Assembly (NCBI GenBank): GCA_000004985.1
Contig: GG738847.1
Length of the DNA: 64,000 nt
Direction: 5' to 3' (one strand)
Source of the DNA: Naegleria gruberi
Taxonomy: Eukaryota
Made by a program: the position numbers and the translations under genes. Shown here in pieces: positions 259 through 46,141 of this stretch. The notes under the pieces were generated by a model that saw only the letters and a program-made list of their open reading frames with translations, did not search any database and was not told the origin of the DNA. Every line of letters starts with the position of its first letter. The stretch's first letter is position 1.

Positions 259-3200
259 TCATTTATTTGAGTTGCTTGGTTGGTCGGTTGTTGCCTGAGC
301 TGGTATGGTTACCAGGTTGGAAGGAGTTGCAACAACAAAACATTCATTAAAGCAACTATCCACTTCATTCATATCGAAATCGTCTGCAATAGCATCTGAC
401 CATTGTTGGAATTGTTTCGATACTGAAACAACATCTTCCTTTAGGTTTTTGATTGCCCTTCTGCTCAATCCTGTTCTCTGGAGTGATTGTACTCCTGTCT
501 TCATTCTACTTGAATACATGATAACAATTTTGGTAAAGAGAGACTTTAAATCGTTTGGATGTGTGCTAAGGTATGACTTTAGAACCTTGTACACTGACAA
601 TAATGCTTTAAGGATAGCTCCAAATGGAGAATCCTTTCTTTGTCCTCCATCCCAATCAAACTTTACAATTTCCTTAGCATGACCTTCTAAAACATCTTTC
701 ATAATATCAAACAGCTTTTGGAAAATTGATTTCTTGTGTTCTTTTAGATCAGTGAGTAGATTATCAAATTTTGATAATTTTCCTTTCAAATATGAATCTG
801 CATTTTCGATATAAATTTTAACTTGTGTTAGGAATGCAATTACTGCTCCCAATACTTCATATGTGAGAACTAAATGTTTGGCTGTAATAGTTTTCAAACC
901 AGATTTTGAGTTGATGGCTCCAGCTTTTAAAATCAAATTTTTTACATCAATATTAAAAGTCTTTGATTATGAATTAGAAAATTATAAGAAGAAAAATCAA
1001 CATACTCCATACAAGTTACATATTCTTGTGCTTAATTCTAAACTGTTAATAAACTTTTGATGTTCTGGTGATAATAGATCTAGGAAATTCTTTGTCATTC
1101 TTACCAAGTGTAAAAAACTGGAACAGATTGGAAATTTCTCGTTGACTATTACTATATATTTGCTCTCAGATGTAGATGATTGAGATTCATCATTGAGGAC
1201 GCTCGTTGTTATGCTATTTACAGTCTCTTGATGTTTTGGCTGAATATTTTCAACCCAAATCCAATTCTCCTTTTCCAAAACTGATTTTATAATATCCAAG
1301 TGTTGCTTATCGAACTCATCCAAAAATGTTTTACCAACTGCTTGAATAGTACTTTTCAAAAAATTAATCTTCTTTCCCATAATTTTTTCACTAGTTTCTA
1401 TAAAAGTGAAACAAATATCCATAAACGTGAGTAATTCTGTTTTTGTGCTATTTTTAACAAGTGTCACTTCTCCTCTCAAAGATACAATCAATGAAAGTCT
1501 ATTATGAATTATTTCTGTAATTGTTGAATTAATCTTCTCAAATTCTCGTAATACGTAGGATGCTTTTGATTTTTCCTTCTCATTAACATCCTCCAATAAG
1601 TGGAATAAAACTACCATAATATCAGCACTCTTTTGGAGAAGGGACAGCCCTACAAAGACTAGATCTCTAATCAGTGATATATACTGATCAGTGGTTATTG
1701 CTCCTAATTGTTGTGTATTTTTGGAACTCAAGTATTTTGAACCACTATTTTCTGTTGAAGAGCTGTTGGAGGTTTTTAAATTTGGTGCATTTCCACCAGC
1801 AGTGTTAGGTTTGGATTGGGAAAGTTTCTTATCAATTGTTGAAGCAAGCCTCTCGTTCAGGAATGCCAGTAATTTTTCTCTGTATTTGTGAATAACAAAC
1901 TGTGTGTCAGTAACAACAATGATTGGTTTTACAATGCTTTCAAACTCTGCTTGTAAATTTTCTCTCGATTGATTATTCTCGGTTAATGTCTTGATAAAAT
2001 CTTGCAAAGATTCATTGGGCTTCTTTGGATCTTCGAATAAGGATATGTATCCTTCTATTAATTTGGAAATAAATAAATTTTGTGCTTTGGATTGAATTTC
2101 TATTGTCTTTTCGTTTAGTTTCTCTGGTAAATTTCTGAAGCACTTCAAGCTAGCAAACTCTGTTTTGATGACCTCTCTTGTTTCATTGATGAGCTCCAAA
2201 GCAGAGAGGAAATCATTGCGTTCAATCAATTCATCAATTATTTCTTGACCTTGTTGAATGGCATAAATTACTTTGTACATTTCTAGAGTTTTTTTAAGAT
2301 TCTTCCTTCTCCTTACAAGGGAAGTGACCTCCAGTGGTGTTTTAGATGATATATTGTCGATATCTTTGATTTTTTGACGTAGCTCCTTCACTAGAGGAAT
2401 AGCTACTTGTAAGTCATCATCTAACTGATTATATTGGAAGAAGGCATCAAAAATCTTTGAGGAACGGAATGTTATGTGTTGAATTAGTAAAATTTCAGTC
2501 TTGTCGAGGTAATGTGAAATTTTTTCTTGAAAAAGTAATGATGTCGACATGGCTTCCTCAGAGAAAATTTCTTGAAAAGTTTTGACATTTCCCAAATCAA
2601 ATCCCTCTTCAAAATATATTGCAGGTATCATTTCTCTATTAATTGCAATATCCATAGCAAAGGTACTTTCTAACTCTGACTCGTAATAGTTTGATTGAAT
2701 ATTTGGTTTGATTTTACTCTTCTCGTAGTTAATGTACAATTCTTCGATTCTGTCCAAGTATGAACTAATGTCTTTATCGGTCAATTCAATATCTGGTAAT
2801 TTAGTTGGTTCTACATATTTTTCCTTGTCACCATATCTATAATAATCTCCAATAGAATCAATCCATGAATAATTTTCCTATTAATGTCAAATTAATTATT
2901 TCCTACTGAAAAATACATACGTCATATTGTTCATTGATTATAGATGAGAAATTCTGACAAAAATTCATCGATTGAATAAACCTCAGCTGTTCCAATTGTG
3001 CTTCCCTAGACAAATTTGGCATTGAATTTGTTTTTTTATGATCACTGTCATCAGAGGGCGTAGCACTCAATGAATATAGATTAGGTACACTCGGAGATCT
3101 AATCCTATCATCAGAAGGTGAAGAAAAGTAGTTATCAAAATTCGGTGATGCAATTTTATCGCATGCTTTGCTGTTTTTCATTTCAAGCTTTGTAGGTATG

Positions 3201-6435: not shown

Positions 6436-9400
6436 TTATTCAAAAAGGTTGTCCACATCTGCCTCTTCATGATTCTCTTCCTCAGTGCTACTACTGGCTA
6501 GAACTGTTGGCTTAGATGGTTCCAATGCTGTTTGAGAGGAAGCATCTTCCATCATACTGAAATTCAAAAAGTGATGAGGACGATGGACTTCATGATAAAA
6601 TTCCTTAGGAACTCCAAGAGTTACGCCATATTCCATATTTTCAGTATGACCATAGCCCATAAAGAAGTAATTCCAAGAACCTTCGTCAGGAACCATAAAG
6701 AATCCCATATAAGATTCTGACAAAATAATTTGGACTCCCTCATAGAAAGCAGCATGATTGAATCCTTGTGGTTCATCACTGAAAATATCCTTATTCTTTC
6801 TACCCCAGTCAAAACCTTCTGGTGTTAACTTGTGTGCAGTAAGATTGCATGAACCAGGAGTAATTTGACAGGTAATAGTAATGGTCTTTTCACCATCCCA
6901 AGATTTGTGTTGGTTCATAACTTTGGAGTGGAATGTGACATCTTGAGGGGTGAGTCTGGTATGACTTGCAGAAGCAGGTTGAGTGTGAATCCAACCAAGT
7001 GGTTCCAATCCTGACAAAATGTCATGTTCTGGTAATTGTTTTGGAACAGCTACAGTCTTATGTGATCCTAATTGAGGAACCAAAACGATACAGTGGATTT
7101 CTTTAACCTTAGGATTGTCTTCAGGAGATTTACCATAACAATAACCCATTACTTGAGTTCTCAAATCTGAAATAGAAATAAACTTCTTCAAAATATTCAT
7201 TGGAAGTACAAAGTCATAGGCGCTCTCAGCAATATCTTCTTGTTCAATGAAAATACGTTTTGTTCTGATTTGAAGATTAGGAGCAGCAATAGCTCTCATT
7301 CTCCAATCGGTCTTACTACTGAATGTTTCTTGTTCGTATGGTGTATTGGTAACAGTAATAATCTCTTCACCATATTGGTTAATCTTTTTGGTTGTGATTG
7401 TGGTGAGTTGGGTGGCTTCTTTTGCCTCTTTCTCAATTTCAGCAATTTGTTGTTGTTGAACTGATGGTGGTGCAATATCCATACCAAGAATAATATCACG
7501 AACTTCTGATTGAGTCAATGATGTAACCTTGACATTGTTTCGTTTACCATAATTTGACAAGATTAAATCTTTCAGAGCAACTTCAACTTTCACCCAAGTT
7601 TGATCGTCCAAAGTTGGCCAAACATGGTGAGGTTGTGTGATGGTTGTCTTGCTTGGTCTTAAAATCATCTTTGTCTTATCAGGGTTAACATCAAAGGCAC
7701 GTAAGGTCAAGATCAATCTGAGGAAGGCTGTGTATGAGTTAATTGATTCACGCCAATCATCATAAATATTGAATACCAACATTTTTGGCTCAGTTGCCTT
7801 CATTACCAAGTCATTGAATTTGTCAATCTTGAGAATTGATTGGAATGGTAATTTCAATTCACTTCCCTTGATAACAATATTAGGGAAGTCCAACAAGTGA
7901 ACTTCTAATGGATCAAGCAAACCCTTTCTAGTAACAATAATTTGTTTTGGTTGTTCTTCAACTGGAAGTGATCTAATCAAACTTGTAACTTCTTCAGCAG
8001 TCTTCCATTTGGCCAATTGGCCTTTACGCTTTTGGCCAGCCCATACACTTGTGTGAATAATCTTCAAATACAATTGACCAGTCTTTGGATTGAAAATATA
8101 AATAGCACCATTTACAGGTTTTGAAGTAGAGTTACCTTCACTAGTTTGGTGAATAACTACACGATAAACATCTGAGTCATCAACAAACCAAATGGTTTGA
8201 TTACTAAACAATTCACCATAGTTTTGACTGTTCAAATATGGTTCAGTTGGTTCAGAAGAGTACAATTGCAAACCCTTTCTGATACGTTCTCTGAGGACAT
8301 AAAGAGCAGGATTGGCTTTCATAATTTTAGCCATAGCCTTACGAATGAGAGGCTTGGATCCGTGGAACCAACATCCATAAGCTGACATGTAGTTATAAGC
8401 TAAATCAATACCGATCAAGACACCAGTTGGAGATGGATAGAATGAAAGATTATCATTAGAATATTCCAAGAACTTGGATCTAGAATATCTTTCAATATCA
8501 TGAGAATCAAAATCACCCCATCTCAATTGAACGTCAATCCAATACTTATTAGAACTAGAGTCATAGGTATCGTTTGGATCTGTCAATAGAGAAGGTTTAG
8601 TAATTTGCCACTTGTATGCAGCAAACAATAAAACATCTGCACAAGAAGAGTTCATCTTGTAAGACTTTCTAGGATGGATTGTTTCCTTTTGTACTGTTTG
8701 AATTTGAAGAGTATCAACTTGTTGATCGAATACTTGACAAAGATCCCAAACTACACTTTCATGGATCTTTTGCCACAAGTGAGCTCTGAAGATTTGAATC
8801 AATGAAATCTTGAGGGTTGGAATCTTACCATGCATGAAAATACCTGTCAAATCCAATTGAACTTGGAAACCAACATAGACATTGGCACGGTTAATAGTTG
8901 GAGACCACCACAAGGTAAATCTTCTGTTTGGAATTTGGTTCAAACCTGAACGCTGAGCATTTGTAAGCTTTTTAAACTTCATACTTTCTTCAAACCCACT
9001 TGCACGTTCCCAGAAAAGACCTTCCCAAGTAACAAAGTAAGTACCCTTGAACAAACTGTGTTCCAAAATACATTCTACACCACCAAGGGCTTGAATCATG
9101 TCAGTTCTATAGTTATTCAATGACCAAAGTTTACCATCATGTCTAGTTTGAGTCCACCAGAAAGGATTTTGTTTAAGTACTTGATAAGCCTTGAATTCAT
9201 TTCTGACTCTCCAGCCCTTATCATAGGCGAGAATGTGTCTGTCCTTTTGGAAAAGTGTATTAATTCTAGGAATACCTCTATCCCAAGAATCTTCCAAGTC
9301 TTCAAGTCCTAACTTTCTATTCTTTTCAAGAGCTTCTCTTCTCTTGGCTGCATATTCTGCCCAAACACGTTGAGAGTCAACAAATTCTGATTGCCAAGGT

Positions 9401-12400
9401 TGGAGATATCTATAAAGATTAGGAATGAGTTGACCTTCATCATGACTCATACCAGAACGGAAGTGAGTTATACCTGTATCAGTTTGCTTGGAATATTTGA
9501 GATCAGATTGTGGAATGAGTACGTGACCCATAGAAAGCATACCTAAACCACCCAATTCTTTTGGAGTATAGAATACAACAGGAGGGAATCTGGTAGGCAT
9601 CTTTGAGTTGAGGCCAATCTTGATTCTTGTTTGAATCTTATTTTCACATTTTACGAGAAGGTCAAGCATTTCTTGTGTATTAACAACAGCTTCACGGAAA
9701 TAAGTCATCAATCCAATAACAGCTGTGTTCCACTTGTTAACAATCTTGGTAAAGGTTGTAGAACCAGAAGCCATAAGAATCATTCTAATACGATTTTCAA
9801 ACTTTCTCATAGATTGTTCACTAACCTTCAGGTAGGCTTGGGCTGTTCTTTCCTTTGTGATTTCATTTCTCAAATCCCAAACACCATCCTTTGAGGTAAC
9901 AAATTGTTGAGAAGGAGCACGAATCTTTGGTAATACTCTAATTTCAAATCCAGACATACTGAATAACAAGTTAGGATTATCCTTACTGTAGACAGAGACA
10001 AATGAATCTTGCCATTTCAAAGTAGTGAGAGATTTTGGCAATCTATTAGTAATTTCCCAGAAAACAGCTCTTCCAAGGTTAACATCGTGTTTCATAAGTC
10101 TCATACGACCATCCCTTGGCCAACATTTCTTATTGTTGTATCCAACAATATTTTCATTGTTTGGATCAGGATGTTCAGTGAGGTATTTTTGAATAAGTTC
10201 ACGAGCCTCTTCATGAGTAAATTTGAAAAGTATATGGAACTCATCGATATATCTCGAGTATAATCTTATTGGATTGTTTGATTCTGTTTGTAAGTCCTTG
10301 TATGTAAGGAAAATATTTGGTTCTCTTGCAGGACCAGCTATTTCACTTGCTCTATCCAATCCAAGCATTAAAATATCCAAAATGAGACAATAGTATTGAG
10401 AAATAAAAGATGAAAATTGAAGACCTCTGATCAAACCATACATGTTCACGTGACTCATATCTTTGAATGTTAGAGTAACGTTGTTCTTGGCACACATATA
10501 ATCAGCAATATTACTGTCAACCACAAGTCTCAATAAACGGTTCAATAGAATTGGATCTATCTTTTCCCAAAGTTTATCAAACTTGGCTTGCATCATTACA
10601 ACACATTCACCATTTGAAGTTTCCCAAACATCTGACAGATTGTTAATAGCTTGGCACCACTTGTAAATAAGAAGTGGAGGTGGTTCAGAGTCGGATGGTT
10701 TAATCCAGTTAGGGAATAATCCTCTCTTGTCAGCTTCATACCACAAATATTGATCCAAGTAAGCATCGGTAATCTTTTCCATTGGTTCAACATCATAGAC
10801 AGGAATGAGATGGCTGTACAAATCCATATACTCGATAGACACTTCTTTGAAAGTTCTTTGTAAGAGTAAATGCTTCTTGATTCTAGTCAAGGCCTCATGT
10901 GGATTGTTATAAGCTTGTTCAATTAGACCAAGTTCTTCACGTTGTGAGTGGTTCAATCTACTCTTTACACTGTAAGCTTCTTTCAATCTTTCCAAAGCTA
11001 GAATAAGTAATTTGGTATCGTGCTTGTACGAAAGAGGAGGGAAAGGAATTGGTGCAAACTTTCTGCTTTCCAACCAGTGAACTGTGGCTGTATAGATAGC
11101 AACAGCTTCTTCTGAAGTAACATATGGACCATCTTTCATATAGTTATGTTGTCTCTCTTGTTCATCCTTCAGGTAGAGACGAGTGAGTCTTCCAAGATTC
11201 TTCTTACTGACAGTCTTATCAACAGTTACACCACGTTTAATACGTTCTCTATTATAGTGGGCAACATTGGTCCACCAGTCAGCCTTGGACTTTACATATC
11301 TCAATATCATATTTTCAATTGGAGAAGGAAGACCTGGAACTTTCCAAGGAATATTGGCCTTCCAACAACGCCAAGCTTCACTCAAGTGTTGCAAGACAAC
11401 TCTAGCCTTATTTTCTCTAATACCTTCAGGCATCATATCAAGAATATCATGCAAAACAGCTGCTCTTAACTCAAGATCAAAGTGAGATTCAACACGTTGT
11501 TTTGTGACAGATTTGGCTGTACCCTTATTTTGTCTTCCTTCAAATTGTTTGGCAAGCAAATTACCTAACCATCTTTCAAGAAGTGGTACAATACCACGCA
11601 AGAAGAATAACCAAACCCTCCAAGCAGGAGCCCAGAAACCACATCCAGGACCCTTATCAACTCCACCAGAATTAAATCTATAATAAATTAAGTGTTTCAA
11701 ATCTTTACACATTCTGATTTGTCTCATAAGTCTGTACTTGTAACGATACATGCCTGTAAGTTGGCCTACATGAGTGAAAATGTAATGCAAACCATCAGCA
11801 AGTTGGTATGCTTCAACATTACCCATTCTATATTGTACATGTGAGTCAACAACAAGTTTTGTCAATCTTAAAATTTCACGACAAAGGTGGAAAGCATTAC
11901 CGAATCTAGATTTTTTACGTTCCTTAGTTGTAAGTGTCTTGATTGGTTTCAAGTTAAAGTTATAATCCAAGTGCAAATAATTTAAATTTTTTCTGTGAAT
12001 TAATAAATTGAGCATATTGAAACCTTGTCTACAAACTTGTAAACCAGCTTCAACCCAATCAATCTTAGTAGTTTTGAAAAATTTGGTATTTTTGAGGGAT
12101 TTAAAGAGATTTCTCTTTGTTTGAGCCTTAGAAGGTTGATGATGTAATTCGTTCAATATGTAACATTTGAGAAGTTTTTGATAACTGACTCTAACCTTGA
12201 CAGGATGTTCAGGATTAGCATGTTCACGATACCATGATTTTACGAGAGGAATATCTTGTGCTCTTTTCATCTTTCCTGAACGATGACAGAATGGACTTGG
12301 AGCCCAATACAAATCAATACCTTGTTGAGTATACGGAGTCCAAAGTGGTTCTTCATCTAAAAGAGGAGAAACATCATCTGGAAGTACAAATACATCTCCA

Positions 12401-13706
12401 TCTCCACCAATATCTTCATATTCAAATTCATTATGTTCTTCGTCATATTGAGATTTGTATGATGAAATTGGGTTAATAGAGTGATGGAATTCAAAAACAT
12501 CTGCATCCGGATCTTCTGATTTGTTGAATGTTAAAAGTGGATGTCTATAACTGGAAAGTTCTACCTTTCTTGGTCTGTCATTATAGAGATGAGGGAATGC
12601 AACCTTGTATTCAGTTCTTACTTTTTGTCTGATAATAATTTTGTGAATATCATTAAATTCATTCCAATCCTCATCCTCTGCATCAACATCTCTGAAAAGT
12701 GGTTCAAACTTTGGTCCACCAGGGAGTGCCATATTTAATGCCTTACTAGTTTTGAATGCTTCTTTATCGAATAAATAGAAATAATTTGGATCTACAATGT
12801 CACTTAACAATCTTTCAGATAATCTGTAAAGGTTAGTCAGGATTGGTAAATTGAGTCTCCACTTCTTGTAACTACTTCCATTTACAAAGTTATTAATGTG
12901 TTCAATGAGAGGCTTATTTTGATAAAGCCAATCAAGTACAGCTAATCTTCTTCTGGATCAAGAGTCATTCTGATAGCTTCTTGAGGTTCTACTCCAAGAA
13001 TATTGCCACCATAATCAATTGGTGGTTCTTCGTCATCAAATGGTGGAAATCTCATTCTTCTGAAATGTTTTCTGTCCTTCTTTTCTCTTCTCATTAAAAT
13101 CCACATGGTTGCCCATTGTGCAAGGTAAACAGGTTCTATTACTCTAGGAATTTCATTCACAAAAGTAATGGCACCAGTGACATGATACAATACTTCAACT
13201 TCTCTCTTTTCTTCCCAAGGCATTGGCATATTTTCCAAAAGTTTGAGTACTGCATGTGGAATGTATTTTAATGCTCCAAGATAAACTCTCTTATCTCTTC
13301 TAAATTTTCTATTAGACATATCACCATGTTCCTTGATAATTTCTCTTAAAAGTTCTGGAGGCTCAATCTTGTTAATATTCTTCGCATTCTTTGATAATCC
13401 ACTTGATCCATTTGTTTGATTGATATTTTTAAATCTTCTCTTGTTAAATTTAATCCAAGCTTTTGCCTTTTGTTCTGTTGCTGTTGATGAAGATGTTGAT
13501 GATGAATTCTGAGTATTTACTCCTGGTGGCAAATTAGGAGTAGTACCAGTTGTTGATGGTTGTATTTTAATTCCAGGTGGAAGCTTTACTCCAGGAGGTA
13601 AATTAGGACGGCCTGTGCTACTACCTCTACCAAGAAGATTTTCTTGATTATTATCTTCCTCGTCATCATCATCAAACATCCGAATATGATCGTTGTTTGG
13701 TATCAT
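6436..13706 (-). CDS. prp8: Pre-mRNA-processing factor 8 (Prp8, U5 snRNP core). Intronless, about 2,380 aa. The frame is broken by an apparent 1-nt frameshift at about 12942-12945.
   Basis: ORF 12942-13706 gives the Prp8 N-terminus (..[56 protein letters not shown]). ORF 6436-12810, extended upstream in frame to 12942, gives [23 protein letters not shown].. through to the C-terminus (..[11 protein letters not shown]). Together they align across the full length to Prp8 with no gap other than a -1 frame change at GAAGAT|TAGCTG. ATG at 13706-13704; stop TAA at 6438-6436. Confidence 0.9.
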
Positions 13707-14273
13707 TTTGTTGTTGAATTAAATAACAAGGCTCGTTTTTAAAATTTCCTCTCTACAAAAACAAGCACAATGCTTTTTAATTTTTTTTAAATATTTTTAT
13801 ATTTAATTTTTGATTAAACGCTTTTTCTTCACCTTCAATGTGTATTGATGCAATTTCGACTGGTCTGTTGAAGCTTGAAGAATAATTATGAAGAGTTATT
13901 TCCGATAGAATTTGAAACGTTGAAACTTCCCTGTGAAATTGGATTCCCCTTTGATGGATCCCTTTTTTTTGGAATGTTAAATGTATCTTTCTTAGTTTCT
14001 TCGACCATTGAATAGGCAGTTGATCAAGCTAATTTAATGCTTTTTGCAAACAGAATAAGGATAAACAATAAGGTGGTTGCTATTTTATTTTTTACAGTAA
14101 TAAGGGCTATTATTTACATTGATCAGAATATATTCGAATGCTCCTCGAATGTAGGAGTAGAATAAGTTAACTGATCATTCTCTCGTTTAATTAAACAATC
14201 TCAAAATATTTGATCCTGTTTCATCTCGCATGCTATTATAATTTGTAATTTTCAATTCAATTGAAACAACAAT

Positions 14274-14516
14274 TTAAGGAAGGGCAAATTCATCATCCAT
14301 TAGAAAATCCCTATCTTCTTTCGACTCTACTATTTTACTACTCCAATTCTGTACCATTGATTGAAGTCGTTGTGTATTGTCCATTATTGTGGAGAGAAAA
14401 TCATTGTCTCCAATAATTGAGAAGCCCTCATCCCTACAATCGGATAAATAATAAGAGTCTTCATCGAGTTTTGGTGATGATTTGCTGTCTCTCTTGCCGT
14501 AGTCAGTTGCTCTCAT
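14274..14516 (-). CDS. Small acidic hypothetical protein (80 aa from the first ATG: MRATDYGKRDSKSSPKLDEDSYYLSDCRDEGF..DDEFALP*)
   Basis: The first in-frame ATG is at 14516-14514; the ORF-track start at 14549 is TTG. TAA stop. No family recognised. An E2F-like palindrome lies about 100 bp upstream. Confidence 0.3.
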   Translation of the reverse strand: MRATDYGKRDSKSSPKLDEDSYYLSDCRDEGFSIIGDNDFLSTIMDNTQRLQSMVQNWSSKIVESKEDRDFLMDDEFALP

Positions 14517-14618
14517 ATTGATTTGTTTTTTTAATGTTTGTTTTTCCAACTCAAAGCCTGGTTCATTGAAATCTTTAAAGAGTTTTCCATATGAATGAAT
14601 TTATTTACATTTTTACAA

Positions 14619-14631
14619 TTTTGGCGCCAAG
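14619..14631. promoter_or_regulatory. E2F-type palindrome TTTTGGCGCCAAG about 100 bp upstream of the small acidic ORF (14516)
   Basis: A GC-rich dyad matching the E2F consensus TTTSSCGC on both strands, in an otherwise AT-rich spacer. Confidence 0.35.
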
Positions 14632-14756
14632 TGCAAATTGTACAAAGAAGCGGGAGTTGCCAATTCAAGTATTGAATTTACTTTCAACAGGTAGACATGT
14701 GACTAGTTCAATAACTTTATATTTTTTATATACAAATAAATACACTTATTTACAAG

Positions 14757-15926
14757 TTAAATAGCTGTTTTACAAATAGGACATTGATTCCTCATTCTCA
14801 ATGCTTGGAAAACACAATCACGATGATATTTGTGTAAACATGTTGGTAGAGTACAAACTACATCCCCAGATTCATACTTGCTCAAACAAATACAACAAGA
14901 TTCTTCTAAAAGACTTCTTCCTAAATTTTCAGAGCAATAAGGCACAGATGAATCTTGTTCATTGTTTGCACTTGAATTAGCTCCATTGGTAGGAACTCCA
15001 GTGTACAGCTCTGAATCATCATTGGAATGTTCTACAGCTGAAAGCGGAGGTATTCTGTATACTGTTAAACGTGAAAGAGTGTTTTCTGAAACACCTCTAG
15101 GTTCAGCATGATGCCCATCTAATTGTAAAAGAGTATCATAATCATTTGCATTAAAATCTCTATCAATCATCATTAATCTCAATGAATTGACATCCATTCC
15201 ACGGCTCTGTAATAATTCTAAAAGTCGTTGATTTCTTTCAGAAATTTCCTCTCCTTCCCAATCATCATGTTCTCCTTCATAACGAGCAAGTCCATACTTT
15301 AACATGTAATATTTGAGATTTCTGATCAAGGTGGATCTATTATGATTTAAACATAATGCGAGAAGTCTCTTTCCCCACAAACACGTACAACAAAAAGCAA
15401 TGCATGAAAACAAAATTGCATTCGGAATTGTGAGTGTGTAGAGTAAAACAGTTCGAAAACTGTTTGCGTTTGAAGTATCAGAAGAATTTTCCTGTCCACT
15501 ATCGGATGATGATGAGGATGGTTTAACAAAAGCTGCCACAAGTATAAAGTGAATAGCAATAATTATGATAAAAAGAATCGATATTACCATTAACACCACA
15601 ATTCTCCTTCTTAAATTCGGATTTAGATTTGAAAATGGGAATGGAGATCTTGTTTCTGTAGCTTGTTCTGGTGTATCATTAATAGCTGGTGTTGGTGTAT
15701 CGATATTATTAGAATTATTATTACTACTTCTATTCCATGAGAAGAATTGTCGGAGTGATTGAAATCTACTTGAATTGTTGTTATTATTATTTGCGACAAA
15801 AGATTGATATTCATCTTCTTGGGTGTGATTATTATTATCTTGTTCATCATCAGATTCTGTGAGTTGTACTCGAACTCCACGATAGGGATGAACAGGATCA
15901 GCCACACCACCGTTATTTGAGGACAT
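14757..15926 (-). CDS. Membrane-anchored RING-H2 zinc-finger protein (putative E3 ubiquitin ligase), 389 aa
   Basis: ATG at 15926-15924. Two hydrophobic segments (IVVLMVISILFIIIIAIHFILVAAF and TVLLYTLTIPNAILFSCIAFCCTCLWG). C-terminal RING-H2 signature CCICLSKYESGDVVCTLPTCLHKYHRDCVFQALRMRNQCPICK. Confidence 0.7.
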   Translation of the reverse strand: MSSNNGGVADPVHPYRGVRVQLTESDDEQDNNNHTQEDEYQSFVANNNNNNSSRFQSLRQFFSWNRSSNNNSNNIDTPTPAINDTPEQATETRSPFPFSNLNPNLRRRIVVLMVISILFIIIIAIHFILVAAFVKPSSSSSDSGQENSSDTSNANSFRTVLLYTLTIPNAILFSCIAFCCTCLWGKRLLALCLNHNRSTLIRNLKYYMLKYGLARYEGEHDDWEGEEISERNQRLLELLQSRGMDVNSLRLMMIDRDFNANDYDTLLQLDGHHAEPRGVSENTLSRLTVYRIPPLSAVEHSNDDSELYTGVPTNGANSSANNEQDSSVPYCSENLGRSLLEESCCICLSKYESGDVVCTLPTCLHKYHRDCVFQALRMRNQCPICKTAI

Positions 15927-16541
15927 TTTTTTGTATTGGAAAGAACTTGCTGATTGGTTGTTTGAAGATATTAATATTTAACGTGAGGTGACTACGATTG
16001 ACCTAGATGGAATCAAACAATGAGTAAAACAACTTGTTTTGATACCAAATGAAACAAAATTTTAAAGATTTTTGAAAGAAAAGTGTTGTCACTTCCATTA
16101 CTCAAAATTTATTCCACAAAACTTAGAAATTTATCCTTATTCACCATTGATTCAAAGTTGTTTGAATTTTTATACTTGAAACAAATGAAATCGAGTAATA
16201 AGTAAAAATAAAACAAGAGGCGATTCTTTCTTGTTTGGATTAGTTTCTAACTTTTTCGAGGATTTCAACAAAAACCAACGTTGAACTTTTTCCACTCAAG
16301 ATTAATTAAAATGCATTTTCAATGATGTAAATTATGAAGGATAGATCTGGAAGACCTGCCTCTTCTGTACAACTAGTAGCAATAGTGATCCCATAAGACG
16401 ATTTGCAATTGTGGCAGAATTCCACCAGAAGGAATTCAATACATCTTCATAAAGAATGAATAAACCATAGTACCAAAAGGCACATCATTGAAAATACTTT
16501 AATTAGCTTGTTTAAAATGAATAATTAAAAACTTTGAAAAA

Positions 16542-17135: not shown

Positions 17136-17281
17136 TCTGATTCATAAAATGTCATCACATCTAGTTCAATTATTTCATCATCCACATAATTGTTTCAATT
17201 AATCATTTGAGAATTTGTGAAATTTAGAATTAAATAATTTGTAAATAATTTTTTTTTAGGATTTTATCAAAATTTAGAAAT

Positions 17282-18487
17282 TTAGAGTTCGTCGTGATCG
17301 GCCTTCTTTTCTTCGACTGGCTTTTCTTCTTGCTTCTTCTTTTCTTCTTCTTCTCTCTTCTTTCTTTCTTCTTCTTCCTTGGCCTTCTTGGCAGATTCAA
17401 TCTTATCGAAAGCTTCCTTTTCCTTCTTGGCACGTTCAACAACCTTTTGAACAGCTTCGTTGGCAACATCCAAATCATCAGTAACCATAATGTTATCAAA
17501 GATAGTACCAGCCTTAACTTGCCAGATTTCAATACCAGCATATTCAATATCGTTATACTTGGCAACATCTTCATCGAAAGCATAATCTGGGTTAGCAATG
17601 AGTGGAGCAGACCATTCACCCTTGTAAGCTGGGTTAGGGATCATTCTAGCCTTCCATTCACCCTTGTATTCTGGGTTTGGAATTTGAGGAGCTTCCCAGG
17701 CACCATCTTCTTCTTCGTCCCAGTTTTCTGGCTTCTTGGCTTCTGGATCAGAAATATACTTTGGTTGATCCCAGTCTTCTGGCTTCTTATCAGTTTCATC
17801 AACAATTTCCTTTTCATCAACCCAATCAGCTGGCTTCTTGGCTTGTGGATCTGGAATATCCTTTGGTGGCAAAAAGTCCCAATCATCATACAAACTTCCG
17901 CTTTCCTTCTTTTGACCATCAATTTGGACTTCATAGGTAGCATCAGGATTGATAATAGCAGTGTAAATGTGAGTGAGTTGATCAGTTTCACATGGAACAG
18001 TCTTCTTCCACAACAAGTTCTTACCCTTGTAGTTGAAGATGAAGTGAATTCTTCTAGTAGCAGAACCACAGATATCAGGACCGAACATAATTCTATATTC
18101 AGTGTCATCCTTGAAGTTTTCTTGGCTAGCACCAGTTGGCAAGAACTTTAAGTAAGCACCACCACAGTCAATGCTTTGTGGATGTTTAGTGGAGAATTGA
18201 ATAACGAGTGGCTTATCACCTCTAGAGACGGCTGGTTTATCGAATCTAGCAGAGATTGAGTAGTGTCTAGCATCTTGACCAGTTTGAAGACCCTTGTCTT
18301 CTTCAGCATCACCGTACCATTCACCGGCAGTGTGTTTCCATTCACCATAGTTATCCTTAGACTTGCTCTTAACCCATCTGGCTTCATATCCAGCATGGAA
18401 AGGTTCATAGAAGAAAGTTTCAGCTGAAACTATAGCAGCTACGCTCAACAAGAGAGCAGCTAACACGATATGTTTAGTTGTAAACAT
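17282..18487 (-). CDS. crt: Calreticulin (ER lumenal lectin chaperone), 401 aa, with a C-terminal HDEL retrieval signal
   Basis: Has a signal peptide (MFTTKHIVLAALLLSVAAIVSA) and the calreticulin N-domain (KGLQTGQDARHYSISARF, IDCGGAYLKF, IMFGPDICG). The P-domain repeats (PxxIxDPxAxKPEDWDx and GxWxxPxIxNPxYK) are present. The acidic K/E-rich C-domain ends in ..HDEL*. ATG at 18487-18485; TAA stop. Confidence 0.92.
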   Translation of the reverse strand: MFTTKHIVLAALLLSVAAIVSAETFFYEPFHAGYEARWVKSKSKDNYGEWKHTAGEWYGDAEEDKGLQTGQDARHYSISARFDKPAVSRGDKPLVIQFSTKHPQSIDCGGAYLKFLPTGASQENFKDDTEYRIMFGPDICGSATRRIHFIFNYKGKNLLWKKTVPCETDQLTHIYTAIINPDATYEVQIDGQKKESGSLYDDWDFLPPKDIPDPQAKKPADWVDEKEIVDETDKKPEDWDQPKYISDPEAKKPENWDEEEDGAWEAPQIPNPEYKGEWKARMIPNPAYKGEWSAPLIANPDYAFDEDVAKYNDIEYAGIEIWQVKAGTIFDNIMVTDDLDVANEAVQKVVERAKKEKEAFDKIESAKKAKEEEERKKREEEEKKKQEEKPVEEKKADHDEL

Positions 18488-27999: not shown

Positions 28000-29397
28000 T
28001 TACATTCTACGCTTATTTGAACTGGATCCAGCTTGAGTACTAAAATTAAAACCAGTACCAGTATTTGCCGTATTGGTGGTTGGTGTTCCAAATGCAAAAC
28101 CTGTGGTGGTTGTTCCTGTTGTGGCAGTATTGGTGAGTCCAAATCCTGTATTTGTTGTTCCCAAGTTAAATCCACTTGTATTAGTGGTAGGTTGAGTTGT
28201 GGTAGAGGTGGTTGGTTGAGTTGTTGGAATATTGAGACCAGGCAGAGAGGAAGAATTCGAAAGTTTTGAATAATTATAAGATGGTTTGGATGTCTTGGAT
28301 GGTTCTTTGAAAGGATCACCTCTAATTTGATAGGTACGAATATATTCATCTCTCAACTCATTAGCCTTTTCATGCAACACAGATAACCTAGCAGCAGCAT
28401 TGAAAAAAGCTTGTTGTTGTGAAACAATTGTTCCTTGAAGTAATTGACCAAATGGTAATTGATAAGCCTCACTGTGTGAAAGAGTTTGAGCGACATCTTC
28501 AATTTGCTTCCAAATTTCTTGCATTCTTTGTTCCAATTTTTGAGCTGTATTGATGAAATAGGTCGATGAATAGTTTGGATCAGTGTTGGTGTAGGCTGAT
28601 CTGAGCTTGTTAAAATTATTTTGAGCTTGTTCTGCATTCTTTGATTCGACCAATACATCATGTTTAATTCTTTCCACATTATCCTTTGCTCGTGTGATAT
28701 TTACTTTAGATGTATTAATTTTCTTTTCAACTCTTTCAATTTGTCTCTTTAACTTGTTCAAATCGCTCGAATTTTCTTGTTGTTTAACAATATCCATAGC
28801 ATTTCTTTTAGTTTCGGTCTTTTCCTTTTCAAATTGTTCCCATTGTTTTTTCATTTGGTCTGGAAGTTTTTGGAATTGTGTTTTTGGAGTGATTGGTTGT
28901 TGTGGTGTGACTGTAGCATTTGTTGTAGTATTATTATTTGTGGTGGTGAGATTGGTAGTATTTGTTGTTGGGGCTGTTGATCCTCCAAAATTAAATCCAG
29001 TTGTAGGAGCTGTTGTTGTGGTATTAGTTGTTGTTCCTGTGGCACCAGTAGTTGTAGGGGCTGTTGTTGTACCACCAAAATTAAAACCTGCTCCTGTTGT
29101 TGGCTGTGTTGTGGTGGTTCCTCCAGTAGTAGAAGGGGTTCCGAATGAAAATCCTCCAGTTCCACCAGTTGTTGTTGTGGCTGTAGTCCCTGTTGTTGTA
29201 GGGTTTGTTGTACCACCAAAATTAAATCCACCAGTAGTTCCACCAGTTGTTGTTGTGGCTGGTTGTGTAGTATTTGCTCCAAAAGAAAATCCTCCTCCTC
29301 CTCCTGTGGTGCCACCAGTAGTTGTTGCAGTTGTTGTTGAAGCAGGTTGTGTAGTTGCACCACCACCTCCACCAAAATTAAAGGTAAAACCTGACAT
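28000..29397 (-). CDS. FG-repeat nucleoporin (Nup58/Nup49-like: FG repeats at both ends flank a central coiled-coil), 465 aa
   Basis: ATG at 29397-29395 (MSGFTFNFGG..); the ORF-track start at 29445 is TTG. The N-terminal ~190 aa have GFNFG/GFSFG repeats in a T/G-rich background. The central ~200 aa are a helical Nsp1-C/Nup58-like region. The C-terminal ~60 aa have GFNLG/GFAFG/GFNFS repeats. TAA stop at 28002-28000. Confidence 0.65.
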   Translation of the reverse strand: MSGFTFNFGGGGGATTQPASTTTATTTGGTTGGGGGFSFGANTTQPATTTTGGTTGGFNFGGTTNPTTTGTTATTTTGGTGGFSFGTPSTTGGTTTTQPTTGAGFNFGGTTTAPTTTGATGTTTNTTTTAPTTGFNFGGSTAPTTNTTNLTTTNNNTTTNATVTPQQPITPKTQFQKLPDQMKKQWEQFEKEKTETKRNAMDIVKQQENSSDLNKLKRQIERVEKKINTSKVNITRAKDNVERIKHDVLVESKNAEQAQNNFNKLRSAYTNTDPNYSSTYFINTAQKLEQRMQEIWKQIEDVAQTLSHSEAYQLPFGQLLQGTIVSQQQAFFNAAARLSVLHEKANELRDEYIRTYQIRGDPFKEPSKTSKPSYNYSKLSNSSSLPGLNIPTTQPTTSTTTQPTTNTSGFNLGTTNTGFGLTNTATTGTTTTGFAFGTPTTNTANTGTGFNFSTQAGSSSNKRRM

Positions 29398-29600
29398 TTT
29401 TTTTGATTCGACTAATTGAAATTCTCGTGGAGGGAATTTTATCAAAATTAAAAGGGAGTGTACTCACTGATAATAAGTGTTGTTCCTGTATCATTCCTTG
29501 ATGTGATGATAGATTGCTAATTATTAACTATTAAAAATTATTATTGCAAAGAAAAGTAGAATTAAATTTTGATTTTGAAGAAAATAAATTTAGAAAAAAA

Positions 29601-32729: not shown

Positions 32730-32802
32730 GCCGACATAGCTCAGTTGGGAGAGCGTAAGACTGAAGATCTTAAGGTCCCTGGTTCGATCCCTGGTGTCGG
32801 CA
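32730..32802 (+). tRNA. tRNA-Phe (anticodon GAA), 73 nt; CCA not encoded
   Basis: GCCGACATAGCTCAGTTGGGAGAGCGTAAGACTGAAGATCTTAAGGTCCCTGGTTCGATCCCTGGTGTCGGCA. It has a 7-bp acceptor stem (GCCGACA/UGUCGGC), D-loop AGTTGGGA, anticodon loop CTGAAGA, T-arm GGTTCGATCC and discriminator A. It is closely similar to canonical eukaryotic tRNA-Phe and is followed by a T6 run. Confidence 0.95.
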
Positions 32803-37200: not shown

Positions 37201-38413
37201 GGCTATTATTAGTAGTATTAATGGTTGAAGTTGGAGCCACTATATTATCATTAAATACTGATATCTTTACAGGTGACAGAGTTGGTGAGGCAGTTAAATT
37301 GATATGAGAAAATGAATTATTATGATCATTGATTGGGGAAGACACTCTATGAATGTTGGAAGAAGGAGGGCTTGTTGTAAGATTAGAGGAATTATTTTGA
37401 GTTGGTGATGATACATTGGAGGAATTAGTTGGTGGTGGATTTGTTGCTTTTTGAATATTATTACCAATTTGATAATTGTTATCATTATTGAGAGGTGCTG
37501 AACTATTTGGAGAGGTTACATTAGTGGTTTTGGAGGATGAGGATGGAGTTGATACATGATAGAAAGATTGAGATTTCTGATTTAACAATTGAGAGGATGA
37601 AGTGTTAAAATTCACAGGCACTCTTCTACCATTAATAATGGCAACATTATTACCTGACAGTGAGGAAGGGGTGGATGGAGTTTTCATTGCATAATCTATT
37701 GCTCCACCATTGCTGGGTTTTGGAGTACAGACAATATCATTGTCCCAGCCCTGATTGTTTCGTTGTGGTTGTAGTGGTGATTGCAAATCGTGTAAACCAC
37801 TTGTAGGAGATACAAGTCTTTCTGCCGAAGGTGTCGATGGAGTTGGATAATTACTGGCATATCCTAGTCTATTGTTGTGTAATTTTGCCTCTCGTTCCAT
37901 AGTTTCATGAATTTGTTGTTTCTTCGTTTGGACATGATTCAAATAGTTTGCCAAATGCTTGAACATTTTCCCAGAAAGTAGTTTCCCATTATTATTCGAA
38001 TCTTCATGTGGTGAAGTTAGAGTATTGAGACTGGATGTATCATTGGAGCTTCTTGGTGTGATATTGTTTGAACTTCGTGGTGTGGATGGAGTTGTTGACA
38101 TTCCTCCAACAGATGAATTACATGAAGTGGGCGACAGGGCATTATTCCTCATCATGAAAGGCACATGTTGTTGTGATTGTAATGTTGGTTTAAATGTTGA
38201 AGTGCTATTATTACTTCCATTATTATTTGAATTATTATTCCTATTATCTCCATGTTGTTCTTGTTGTTGCTGCTGCGGTAACGAAGAATAGGATGAAGGA
38301 GAGAGAATGATGGAACCACTATTATTGTTATTATTAATTATGGAGGATGAAGAAGTTGTTGATTGAATGGTTGCCGAAGTTGTGGAAACCGTTTGAAGAT
38401 CAATACCATCCAA
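34241..38413 (-). CDS. Large ankyrin-repeat protein with an N-terminal N/S/Q-rich low-complexity region. 5' end unresolved.
   Basis: The ORF is 1390 codons. Ankyrin repeats include ..GNSLLQIAIQYNQVEVVALMLSKFDINLNYTNKIEGTALHVAATKGNCDVLTMLL.. and ..GNAAIHLAADARDYKSIETMILLGVSPTLKKRDSGVTSLHIAASKGYPEIVKLLI... The top of the ORF is TTG, not ATG, and the frame stays open only to 38512 with no ATG. The true start is either an internal Met or an unrecognised upstream exon; a possible acceptor is CTCCTTAAAG| at 38441. Confidence 0.55.
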   Translation of the reverse strand: MDGIDLQTVSTTSATIQSTTSSSSIINNNNNSGSIILSPSSYSSLPQQQQQEQHGDNRNNNSNNNGSNNSTSTFKPTLQSQQHVPFMMRNNALSPTSCNSSVGGMSTTPSTPRSSNNITPRSSNDTSSLNTLTSPHEDSNNNGKLLSGKMFKHLANYLNHVQTKKQQIHETMEREAKLHNNRLGYASNYPTPSTPSAERLVSPTSGLHDLQSPLQPQRNNQGWDNDIVCTPKPSNGGAIDYAMKTPSTPSSLSGNNVAIINGRRVPVNFNTSSSQLLNQKSQSFYHVSTPSSSSKTTNVTSPNSSAPLNNDNNYQIGNNIQKATNPPPTNSSNVSSPTQNNSSNLTTSPPSSNIHRVSSPINDHNNSFSHINLTASPTLSPVKISVFNDNIVAPTSTINTTNNSPTPLSAVSVITDNSHSYPTSPAHNKPQHHRVNSNPTTDHPPSHSEKGKYPLNLNFKNSMDESDPFHHDGMISVRSISSVTSYNDHDLLTPRIDIGAVYGAIVGVGTSITNHINEQGNKTARRRNTKQRAAQGKRRSNSMAASSFSHHQDFVVDIKHHISDSVAASATNYSINPISPIPAVDNNGLAFSPQKKPVPTLEASKPATDLLVEHLKSPHTPTKLMFGRGSSTNSPIHIKAASSSNLLSFSNQVAASALKDPSTPTKGAAPISVSTPLKQVGSSLSFYIPKLTPLSEVAKNSNIIIHATKSGCVALLECVLDDTNVNNIRDNHNGNSLLQIAIQYNQVEVVALMLSKFDINLNYTNKIEGTALHVAATKGNCDVLTMLLTALSKTGVKKLDWARKDTYGNAAIHLAADARDYKSIETMILLGVSPTLKKRDSGVTSLHIAASKGYPEIVKLLIDFYTEPITFANMRDDNGLTALMRSVLSVHYNDKMETDEFLERYQPSYYPNSPLGSLEKFIRTNSRNWNKDLTDAERKNYMRVWLYLLNEIDYKACCTVKTIAHGLNLFHLAAMSNNVVFLHLCALSLPEDLYQKLFYEPDKYEGFTPLHLACWFNNSNVVELFLSVATENQDDIQQKRRTLVPFRRHTDCSATDVSDLGLTAVSKQMSSSDSDINTTVFPSNAKLAFQLGGTSTSLQDSGRVNIPQLKVSLIEKKISPQPSPQQSPGTARFKKGFEKLSNLIKTPRRSQSATTPEDQQTPRDSEPRSGRFFRRRRPTINESSEEDQAHHENSSFILKERRLDPRHYRYSIEKTNLYGETALYVAIQRLKDLLIEEQDIRDPLLQKKILEAKKKNQQEITRTSQNLTRIDATANNPLAISTASIYSSPSSTEKSTSKFLSMRRLSSVHYNMEKYWESFAERLSSMDSIVHLLIISKSSLKAKSTRNKDVSIHHLVQKVIDECDKLPDEGTKLSSMHTNISIKYSLFLSK

Positions 38414-39419
38414 CGAAAAGGGAATTGGTTGTTGTGCTACCTTTAAGGAGAGTCGTGTCGTGCAAATAGTTGGTGTTCCATCATCGTCATTGTCTTCTTC
38501 ATCGAGAATAAATTATTATTATTATCGGTTATTGAAACTCTTGATGATGGGTTATTATTGAAGAGTTTGCTTCTCCCGCCGTTTTAGATGATGAGAGAGT
38601 AGTCTCATTTTCTGAAGAGGAATGTTGCGGTGCGTGAAGGTTATCTGTTAGCACGATTTTGTTATTATCTAATGAGAGTGTGTTATTATTATTGATTTTT
38701 GGTGCTGATGATGGTGAAAGAAGAAGAAGGTGTTGTTGATGAATTTGTTATTGTCTTCTGTCCACTACTTAGAATGGGGTTTAGTGAGTCCATCAATAAT
38801 ATTTTGTTATCACTTCCACCATTGTCAGCAGGCCAACGTTGCATTTTTATTGATAGCTGACTTTTAATATTGGCAAGAGAACACAAAAATTGACAGTGTC
38901 GGTGCGAACCAATGTGTTGGAAATCATACGAGAGCTCTTTGCCGGTTCCAGCACTTTTCAGTCACAATCAAGATATTTCAAAATCCAAAATGCTGACTAT
39001 TATCCATTGTTTAATTTCCTTAACTAACTTGGTTCTTCATGAATGGATAAAGATCAATAATACATACAAAAGATGAATAAACACTAAACTATTTATTCTA
39101 TAAAGTTTGCGCAGAGCTTTGGATAACAAACCGTTTGTTGGTTATTTATTGTGAAAAGAATTATTAAAAAACAAGTCTCTGCGGATACTAAGTAAGCATA
39201 ATCGGATTAAAGCTCTCGGCACAAGTGGTTGCTCAATATTCCCATCTATCAACCATTGTCAAAATATCGACAAATATTCATATCGCTGTACATTTCAAAC
39301 GGAAACTATTCATGAATAAGATACGCACCAATTCAAAGAGACTTTAAAACAAAATATCTTCATCATCACATCAAGTTTTTCTGAACATCCTCAACAGTAG
39401 GATCATCAAGAATACCAGA

Positions 39420-41804
39420 ATGAATCGTAACATCGATTCCTCTCAAGTACATTTCAGGGCCACCAGCAGTTTGGATACTAGAACAACCCGCCATTTTCCC
39501 TTCTCTCGAACTCATACTGCCAGCCAAAACAAACGAAATAATGATGTACAAAACTCTTTCAATACATCAGCCAGCTATCCTTCCCCTTACAATCCCAATA
39601 AGAATAGTGATCCAAACAGTGTCAATCTATTCAATACACCTCTAAAATCAAAACCAATTCCCAATAATAATAATGCAAATATCTTTCCAAAACTTCCGAA
39701 TGGTAAGGGACAAGCACTCCCTCCTCTTCAAAACAAACCTCCACCAACAACAGCTTCCTCAGGGTCTAGAAAGAAGGATATCTCTTCAACTCTTGATGAT
39801 GAATTTGGTTCATCTGGACCATTAAATGAAATCAACTGGGAGAGAAAGACGAAGAAGAGACTGAAACCAATTTCTGCCTTTATCACTGAAACTATCAATG
39901 CTCAAGTGGCAGAAGAATCTGTAAATAGTTCAATCGTTACAACGGAAGAAGCAAGTAACAATGGAGGGGGAGGCACTTTCCTTACCGAACTCTCAAGATC
40001 AGCCTCTCCTATCGGAATGAATAGTAATAAGGAAAATAGAGTAGAAATTCAATCAAAGACTTTCTTCAAACAAAATCGAGCACCAACCACTAATCAAACA
40101 AATTTGGAACTCTATGTTGAGGATCCATTCGATGTTACTGATAGAAACAGTTGTGTCAAGAAAGCAATTAGTGGAACCATTAGACGTGTAAATATATTAA
40201 CACACAAAAAATTCGAGTATTGGAAAAACAACTCTGATAACAAGTTTGTAGCTTCTGAACTTTTGACCAAGTTTCCTCAACAGGAGCTCGATGCCAGTTA
40301 TCAAAGATCCCTTATGAGTAGGGCTAAGGAGTTAGACGACAGGCCTGATTTCACCAGACAAACCTTGGAACTGTTATTTTTGCCATTTAAAACTTTTGAG
40401 AATAATAATTTAGTGGAAACATCACTCAATCCAGAAGCAGAACAATCAGCTGCTCAAATCAACTCAGATGATGTTCAGAATACAGGTCCAAAGAGGGTTG
40501 CAGATAAAAAATTTGAAGACAAAATAGATGAAGAACTCAAACGAAGTGATGTGGTATTTAAGGAATTATTTACCAAATCCTATCAAATGGCCAAATCAAC
40601 GATAACACATTCTTCAACTCTCAAAAATCCACTAGTTGGTATTTTGGCAGGATCAGACTTCTTACCTGCCTATCAATCCGAATATGTGACAATAGCAAAG
40701 CCAAAAGCAAAGAGAAAGGTGTTAAATAGTGATGTTTGGAGGAATGAATTTCTCGATGCTCAAATCAACCACCAACAAGATTTGCTTAACATTCTGGATA
40801 CAAGATATGGAAATAGATACATTGTTGAACAGTCTCAAATTTATTTGGAAAAGTTGGTTCAAAGATCAGTGAAACGATCTGAGAGATTTGCTCTCAATGG
40901 CCTCAATGAAACTATTCAAAGAAAGCCTGGAGATATAACTTTTGAATCATTTTGGGATAGATACAGTAAAACTTTGGAAGTGGAAAAGACACAATTTTAC
41001 CAGACAGTGCTTTTCTACAGAAGGTTATTGTTTCACTTGGAAACAATTCAAATTCCATCACCCGACAATTCTTATCTGATAAGATTACTCGAGAGTATAA
41101 GATTAAGACTAATTGAGAATCCAAGACAAGAATTGACAAAAGAGCATATTTTCTTTAGTAATATCAAACCATTGGTCGAGGAAATGTCAAGGTTTGATAA
41201 GCTTCATCCTGAAGATGGTGGAAGATTGGATGCATTCTTCAGTAATAGAGAGACCATTAAGGTTATTCAATTTTTTATTGCCGAGCTCAATATTAACAGT
41301 GATGATTTGTTTACAAACTTCTTACTCAAATTGAGAATTAAACATACAAAGGTTCTGGATGAGCTAAGAACCAGGCTTAAAGAAAGAGAAAGACAACAAC
41401 AAGCACTGATCAAGAAGGTTGATCTCTTCCTTGTAGATGGTGCGGAAAAGAACTTTATCAGAGCGATGGTTATGGCTCTCCAACCTCACTCTGCACTGGC
41501 TGGTTCTTTAATTGTGAAGAAGGGTGATACTGCCAATGAAATGTTTTTCATTCTCAAAGGTTTTGTTGAGGTTATCACAGAGGGCATTGATCCAAAAGTC
41601 ATTGCTACATTGGATGAAGGTAAATTCTTTGGGGAGGTTGGTGTCGTTCTCGATCAGACTAGAATGGCCACTGTAAGGGCTGGGTCGCACTGTGACTTGT
41701 TTGTGCTTAGTAAGAGTGCATTGAAGAGAATTGAGGAAGAATTTCCAGAACCTTGTCAAAAGATTAGGGATAAGGCAATTGAAAGACTTAACTCTGTAAA
41801 ATAA
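39420..41804 (+). CDS. Cyclic-nucleotide-binding-domain protein (794 aa), with a single C-terminal cNMP-binding (CAP-effector-type) domain
   Basis: ATG at 39420; TAA at 41802-41804. The C-terminal ~120 aa match the cNMP-binding fold, including a phosphate-binding cassette (..NEMFFILKGFVEVITEG..LDEGKFFGEVGVVLDQTRMATVRAGSHCDLFVLSKSAL..). It has the conserved FGE and the Arg of the (P)R(A/T)AT motif. The N-terminal half is S/N/P-rich. No kinase, cyclase or channel domain is recognisable. Confidence 0.6.
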   Translation: MNRNIDSSQVHFRATSSLDTRTTRHFPFSRTHTASQNKRNNDVQNSFNTSASYPSPYNPNKNSDPNSVNLFNTPLKSKPIPNNNNANIFPKLPNGKGQALPPLQNKPPPTTASSGSRKKDISSTLDDEFGSSGPLNEINWERKTKKRLKPISAFITETINAQVAEESVNSSIVTTEEASNNGGGGTFLTELSRSASPIGMNSNKENRVEIQSKTFFKQNRAPTTNQTNLELYVEDPFDVTDRNSCVKKAISGTIRRVNILTHKKFEYWKNNSDNKFVASELLTKFPQQELDASYQRSLMSRAKELDDRPDFTRQTLELLFLPFKTFENNNLVETSLNPEAEQSAAQINSDDVQNTGPKRVADKKFEDKIDEELKRSDVVFKELFTKSYQMAKSTITHSSTLKNPLVGILAGSDFLPAYQSEYVTIAKPKAKRKVLNSDVWRNEFLDAQINHQQDLLNILDTRYGNRYIVEQSQIYLEKLVQRSVKRSERFALNGLNETIQRKPGDITFESFWDRYSKTLEVEKTQFYQTVLFYRRLLFHLETIQIPSPDNSYLIRLLESIRLRLIENPRQELTKEHIFFSNIKPLVEEMSRFDKLHPEDGGRLDAFFSNRETIKVIQFFIAELNINSDDLFTNFLLKLRIKHTKVLDELRTRLKERERQQQALIKKVDLFLVDGAEKNFIRAMVMALQPHSALAGSLIVKKGDTANEMFFILKGFVEVITEGIDPKVIATLDEGKFFGEVGVVLDQTRMATVRAGSHCDLFVLSKSALKRIEEEFPEPCQKIRDKAIERLNSVK

Positions 41805-41879
41805 ATTAATTTATTTTTAAACTGCAACAACATTAAAATACAATCCCGCTCAAATAAAACTCTAACAACTACAAAAAAA

Positions 41880-46050: not shown

Positions 46051-46070
46051 TTCATGGCTCGCCACGTTTA

Positions 46071-46141
46071 CCGTCTCGGGAGGAATCGAACCTCCGTCAA
46101 TGGATTCAAAGTCCACTATGCTACCATTACACCACGAGACG
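46071..46141 (-). tRNA. tRNA-Gln (anticodon UUG), 71 nt
   Basis: The reverse complement is CGTCTCGTGGTGTAATGGTAGCATAGTGGACTTTGAATCCATTGACGGAGGTTCGATTCCTCCCGAGACGG. It has a perfect 7-bp acceptor stem (CGTCTCG/CGAGACG), anticodon arm GTGGA-CTTTGAA-TCCAT and T-arm GGAGG-TTCGATT-CCTCC. The GGACTTTGAATCC core is typical of tRNA-Gln(UUG). Confidence 0.85.

Follow-up and report, generated by a model that had tools for sequence, protein, structure and literature searches.

The analysed window comprised 64,000 nucleotides of the Naegleria gruberi contig GG738847.1 (assembly GCA_000004985.1). On its minus strand, the gene for the splicing factor Prp8 was laid out in two reading frames that met at a single junction. 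The N-terminal segment, hereafter frame A, occupied 12945..13706 and ran from an ATG at 13706 to a GAT codon at 12947..12945, giving 254 sense codons. On minus-strand translation, its last residues were LDPEED, after which a premature TAG (12942..12944, minus strand) closed the frame. The rest of Prp8, hereafter frame B, extended uninterrupted over 6436..12942 on the same strand with 2168 sense codons and a stop, beginning with the residues AVLDW. On its upstream side, frame B was shut by a minus-strand TGA at 12958..12960, five codons before the junction. Because of this upstream TGA in frame B and the TAG in frame A, any change of frame was confined to 12957..12942. The missing-base site was located at 12944..12945 on the minus strand, where one G (C on the plus strand) was absent between 12945 and 12944, and it lay outside any homopolymer run. 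An earlier note on this DNA had run frame A from 13706 to 12945 followed by TAG, opened frame B at 12942, and let the two frames share one base. By translation, every one of these coordinates was accurate, the shared base being the G at 12942 that belongs both to the TAG and to GCT, the first codon of frame B (12942..12940).

In the public gene models of NCBI, the locus is divided between two proteins. Frame A is an exact match to XP_002682559.1 (D2V0Z6, NAEGRDRAFT_62470), a 'predicted protein' of 254 aa. The exact-sequence look-up placed XP_002682558.1 (D2V0Z5), the 'splicing factor Prp8' of 2098 aa, at 6436..12732 on the minus strand. The latter model starts at the first in-frame ATG of frame B (12732), which is found 70 codons downstream of the junction. 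The approximately 70 conserved Prp8 codons at 12733..12941 on the minus strand (AVLDW...KALN) are contained in neither model, and with the Val codon that was lost, about 71 conserved Prp8 residues are left outside both. This orphaned stretch is continuous and conserved in the conspecific contig described below and in the homologues. Consequently, the public N. gruberi Prp8 is truncated at its N-terminus, and the first 254 residues of the protein are filed as an unrelated 'predicted protein'. The window comes from strain NEG-M: four of its ORFs were identical to the N. gruberi NEG-M proteins XP_002682351, XP_002682560, XP_002682570, and XP_002682354, encoded on a contig of 941,567 bp. The exact-product look-up returned no record for the 254-aa ORF, a neighbour of 924 aa, a neighbouring RING protein, and an ORF of 91 aa. 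Moreover, the repaired protein of 2423 aa was absent as an exact sequence from a collection of 15 billion proteins, and no paper mentioning a Prp8 frameshift in N. gruberi was found in a literature search.

All eight Prp8 Pfam families were detected above the curated cut-offs and in canonical order, PRO8NT in frame A and the seven others in frame B. PRO8NT covered residues 116–254 of frame A and profile positions 5–143 of 152, breaking off exactly at the premature stop. In frame B, PROCN (4–407 of 407), RRM_4, U5_2-snRNA_bdg, U6-snRNA_bdg, PRP8_domainIV (1–230 of 230), JAB, and PROCT were found, and all but JAB were matched essentially end to end. Across the junction itself, 181 of the 191 Prp8 homologue fragments spanning the site were gap-free over ±10 residues and carried exactly one residue at the lacking codon. 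Judged on these alignments, such agreement on a one-residue spacing is far beyond chance. The residue sits between the ...ED motif and the AV/xV...DW motif of the homologues, where Ala is commonest. As the conserved spacing needs one more residue than the reference supplies, one codon is incomplete and one nucleotide is missing. The earlier note had regarded both frames as colinear with Prp8 and had proposed that one added nucleotide restores the conserved spacing. Both proposals held, the former through the Pfam domain series and the gap-free homologue alignment and the latter through the single residue in those 181 fragments.

The spacing statistics were drawn from word-indexed protein searches in which the repaired junction region and the N-terminal 473 aa served as queries. 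At least 120 Prp8 matches were listed, all shorter than 1000 aa and at most 71% identical, with no Naegleria sequence among them. This search missed the window's own 254-aa model even though the model is in the collection, and it seems blind to long proteins and to proteins of the source genome; no close match in it does not equate to no relatives. In addition, a protein-guided scan of JGI metagenomes yielded 80 Prp8 loci, all at most 73% identical, and no Naegleria relative was present among these 80. At every one of the 80 loci, the tblastn matches took in query residues to the left and to the right of the junction.

Prp8 (PRPF8) of other eukaryotes is a protein of about 2300–2400 aa at the core of the U5 snRNP, and the repaired Naegleria protein has 2423 aa. 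Like canonical Prp8, it carries the full set of Pfam domains in canonical order and shows gap-free spacing over the junction. The identity with oomycete, chytrid, and plant fragments was approximately 70% over the N-terminal 550 aa. Unlike canonical Prp8, the first ~115 residues are of low complexity, rich in Pro, Ser, and Thr, and without a Pfam match. A further difference concerns the repaired position, which holds Val in Naegleria and most often Ala in the homologues.

A conspecific sequence across the junction was obtained from an independent Illumina/MEGAHIT metagenome assembly (ENA ERZ929261, run ERR1078381, PRJEB11402). The contig, k127_522887 (3366 bp, hereafter L002), carries P0200, a near-identical relative of one neighbouring gene. 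Pairwise alignment gave 99.1% identity over 3.4 kb between L002 and 16124..12742 of the window. At the junction, L002 reads GAT-GTA-GCT (Asp-Val-Ala), whereas the window reads GAT-TA-GCT. The alignment placed GAAGATGTAGCTGTA in L002 against GAAGAT-TAGCTGTA in the window, with the G falling between 12945 and 12944; in longer context, L002 has GATGTAGCT, with the extra G at its position 3163, and the window has GATTAGCT. The ORF predicted by a gene caller on L002 opens at the Prp8 ATG and continues without a break for 322 codons, until the contig stops, and it reads ...LDPEEDVAVLDW... across the junction. The added G also stretched the PRO8NT match from profile position 143 to position 151 of 152. 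L002 covers 966 nt of Prp8, and the sole other difference there was a synonymous AAA/AAG exchange. The earlier note's preference for a 1-bp indel error over other causes was supported by a 99.1%-identical sequence that has one extra base at the exact spot and a continuous ORF. The base offered earlier as an example, a T giving D-L-A with Leu, has to be replaced, since L002 has a G that gives Val. A further search for contigs across the site, using an exact DNA pattern with 0 or 1 extra base, gave 0 matches in JGI metagenomes and 0 in GTDB genomes.

The same sample (ERZ929261) supplied a second contig, L001, which was 98.7–99.6% identical to 37554..41867 of the window. By the identity of these two contigs, the sample, although labelled 'metagenome', contains a conspecific N. 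gruberi strain. Apart from the Prp8 indel, 10 indels separated L001 and L002 from the window. Those in ORFs were 3 nt long (38253, 15781-15783, and 15505-15507), and the others were found between ORFs. Indels that were not multiples of three occurred between ORFs at 39142, 38510, 38550, 38720, and 14668, along with one of 14 nt at 13840-13853. This 14-nt indel falls within intergenic or promoter sequence, ~135 nt ahead of the ATG of Prp8. In the ~7.8 kb compared, the Prp8 indel was the only frame-breaking difference. On the evidence of these two contigs, strain variation respects reading frames, but the Prp8 indel does not.

The Prp8 frameshift probably reflects the erroneous loss of one base from the consensus of the NEG-M draft, which we take to be a Sanger whole-genome shotgun assembly. 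According to this explanation, prp8 of the species would be an ordinary intron-less gene, one 2423-codon ORF with ...GAA GAT GTA GCT GTA... (E-D-V-A-V) at the junction, and the DNA of NEG-M itself would carry the G. With the G of GTA left out of the reference, GAT-GTA-GCT would become GAT-TAG-CT, that is, an apparent stop and a change of frame. Automatic annotation would then have split the gene into the 254-aa 'predicted protein' and the N-terminally truncated 2098-aa 'Prp8'. The Prp8 mRNA would be expected to contain the G (...CCAGAAGAAGATGTAGCTGTA..., an ORF of 2423 codons) and to be translated normally, with nothing special happening in the cell. The locus resembles other genes split by single-base indels in draft assemblies, in that the adjacent models lie on the same strand, in different frames, and colinear with one conserved protein. 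Moreover, the lesion is alone in an otherwise intact ORF, and a near-identical independent sequence restores the frame by one base. It differs from such cases in that the error at Prp8 is one we infer and in that the base is located outside a homopolymer. The latter speaks against a consensus error, as false indels in a consensus arise most often in homopolymers.

The possibility that the one-base deletion is real had to be weighed against this explanation. The deletion could be carried by one NEG-M allele, the assembler having picked the defective haplotype while the intact allele supplies Prp8. The same data would be expected in that case as for a consensus error, because the intact version was seen only in another strain (~1% divergent), and a real NEG-M-specific deletion would look identical here. 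The undecayed state of both Prp8 halves fits a very recent lesion, and the position outside a homopolymer is also in favour of a genuine deletion. Naegleria are described as mainly heterozygous diploids with ploidy variation (PMC9928731). NEG-M is a long-propagated, non-haploid laboratory clone, in which a defective allele could be sheltered by an intact one. The earlier note had allowed for a genuine deletion as a recoding event or a pseudogene, but its list omitted the more commonplace case of a defective allele beside an intact one in a non-haploid laboratory strain. By a rough estimate, however, the indel errors in a draft consensus of ~41 Mb should far outnumber the real coding indels that a clonal line gains. 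Furthermore, a null allele of an essential and highly constrained gene is an unlikely target, and no second haplotype was visible within the window. Since the estimated indel errors outnumber real coding indels and a Prp8 null is unlikely, the consensus error is favoured, and a defective allele is considered unlikely. A very young pseudogene, its work being done by another, intact copy of prp8 at a different locus of the NEG-M genome, would account for a premature stop in an indispensable gene, and the window shows only 64 kb of that genome. Nevertheless, this is very improbable because no other lesion was present in 7.3 kb of coding sequence, all domains were retained, and the locus is syntenic with and near-identical to a conspecific contig with an intact gene. 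In place of the several lesions or the relaxed constraint expected of a pseudogene, one lesion and one synonymous difference in 966 nt were found. No second prp8 copy was detected within the 64-kb window, and Prp8 is single-copy in most eukaryotes. The production of Prp8 as two polypeptides, one of 254 aa and one of 2098 aa from the internal ATG at 12732, would match the public annotation, but that annotation is automatic. It would discard ~71 conserved residues, including the end of PRO8NT, although they are perfectly preserved in the DNA and are encoded in one frame by the conspecific strain, and no promoter or re-initiation logic was found. A two-piece Prp8 was rejected, as it would leave conserved codons untranslated, and hardly any probability is given to it. 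A spliceosomal intron at the junction was also rejected, since the frames overlap by one base and leave nothing for splicing to take out. The statement that no intron can explain the junction was thereby upheld, given that no surplus bounded by GT...AG is present, the homologues are gap-free, and one more residue is needed rather than fewer.

In the case of recoding, the deletion would be fixed in NEG-M, and full-length Prp8 would be made either by ribosomes that shift by −1 (or +2) at GAU-UAG or from an mRNA that gains a nucleotide through transcriptional slippage or insertional editing. The stop exactly at the junction and the intactness of both halves are compatible with such a mechanism, and a −1 shift would yield D-L-A with the right spacing. 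However, no X_XXY_YYZ slippery heptamer was found in the last 80 nt of frame A, a shift being possible only within 12957..12942 (TCCAGAAGAAGATTAG), and the P-site GAU cannot re-pair in the −1 frame (AGA). No stimulatory RNA structure was found downstream either: the minimum free energy of the 111 nt there was −17.3 kcal/mol, no better than that of shuffled sequences, which averaged −16.6 (z = −0.23). Conservation of the shift was likewise absent, as the conspecific L002 is in frame. A programmed −1 frameshift site was rejected on all three counts, namely, slippery site, structure, and conservation. Because the strain with 99% identity has an in-frame GTA, any recoding site would need to have arisen within about 1% divergence, and in an essential gene. 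The remaining ORFs of the window are ordinary and long. N. gruberi does not decode by frameshifting in general, because the window contains ordinary long standard-code ORFs, ordinary tRNAs, and a normal intron. Transcriptional slippage is unlikely because the site is not a homopolymer. Insertional RNA editing is not known outside organelles, and nuclear mRNAs are not known to undergo it; the documented RNA editing of Naegleria is mitochondrial and of the C-to-U type. Recoding thus has only a very slim chance of being correct, and if it were true, a heterolobosean would have acquired recoding very recently in a gene essential to its spliceosome. Even taken jointly, recoding, a pseudogene backed by another copy, and a Prp8 made in two pieces are highly improbable.

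Comparison with known frameshifting systems led in the same direction. Programmed −1 frameshifting, as in retroviral gag-pol, coronavirus ORF1a/1b, and bacterial dnaX, shares with the Prp8 junction the overlapping frames, the single product, and the restoration by a −1 shift. Unlike these systems, the Prp8 junction has no slippery site, no stem-loop or pseudoknot signal, and no conservation in the closest relative. In Euplotes, frameshifting is reportedly triggered by stop codons at AAA-TAA/TAG and is mostly +1. The Prp8 junction is similar in having a stop codon exactly at the frame junction, but the preceding codon is GAT and not AAA, and a shift of −1 or +2 rather than +1 would be needed. 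Unlike Euplotes, N. gruberi is a heterolobosean; it uses the standard code, the ORFs throughout the window are long and ordinary, and a conspecific sequence without the shift is available. Since no slippery heptamer, stimulatory structure, intron signal, or spare sequence is present at the site, the frameshift is private to the NEG-M reference record. A sequencing error, or no more than an allele confined to the strain, is its most likely origin, rather than a recoding signal. Because the frameshift and intron requirements fail and the pattern of a draft indel fits, the Prp8 junction is not a real biological feature, or is at most a trivial strain-private allele.

The main value of this result is that of an erratum: a single Prp8 of 2423 aa should merge XP_002682559.1 and XP_002682558.1, with the junction reading ...LDPEEDVAVLDW... 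(LDPEED-V-AVLDW). The junction would be of biological interest only if reads showed that the deletion is genuine and homozygous. Reconstructions of the spliceosome and of LECA routinely use N. gruberi to represent Discoba (e.g., PMC9887622), so that dividing Prp8 in two can distort alignments, the counting of domains, and the assignment of orthologues. Other faulty gene models are on record for this reference: a preprint of 2026 (doi 10.64898/2026.08.18.745565) used a de novo transcriptome of NEG-M to correct the models of eight N. gruberi kinetochore genes. The same preprint described frameshift discrepancies between genome and RNA-seq in another Naegleria assembly.

Elsewhere in the window, a gene for Vps54 of the GARP complex was spread over two ORFs on the minus strand (259..2784), the one at 997..2784 carrying Vps54_N and the one at 259..936 the C-terminal domain of Vps54. 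A short stretch between these ORFs begins with GTATGT near 1004 and has AG candidates near 925-935. In contrast to the Prp8 junction, this gap looks like an ordinary spliceosomal intron. On the plus strand, the ORF at 54879..56276 was identical to XP_002682354.1. As UniRef lists this protein under the name O-phosphoseryl-tRNA(Sec) selenium transferase (SepSecS), the window encodes part of the selenocysteine machinery. An Rfam scan of the window detected only two tRNAs and gave no match near the Prp8 junction. These nuclear tRNA genes, tRNA-Phe(GAA) at 32730..32802 (+) and tRNA-Gln(UUG) at 46070..46142 (−), are placed between protein genes. At 17230..18487 and 28000..29445, several long ORFs overlap in different frames on both strands. 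A strong positive GC skew was observed around 28-30 kb (0.21) and likewise at 4-6 kb and 36-38 kb. Together, the overlapping ORFs and the GC skew suggest compositionally biased or low-complexity coding sequence.
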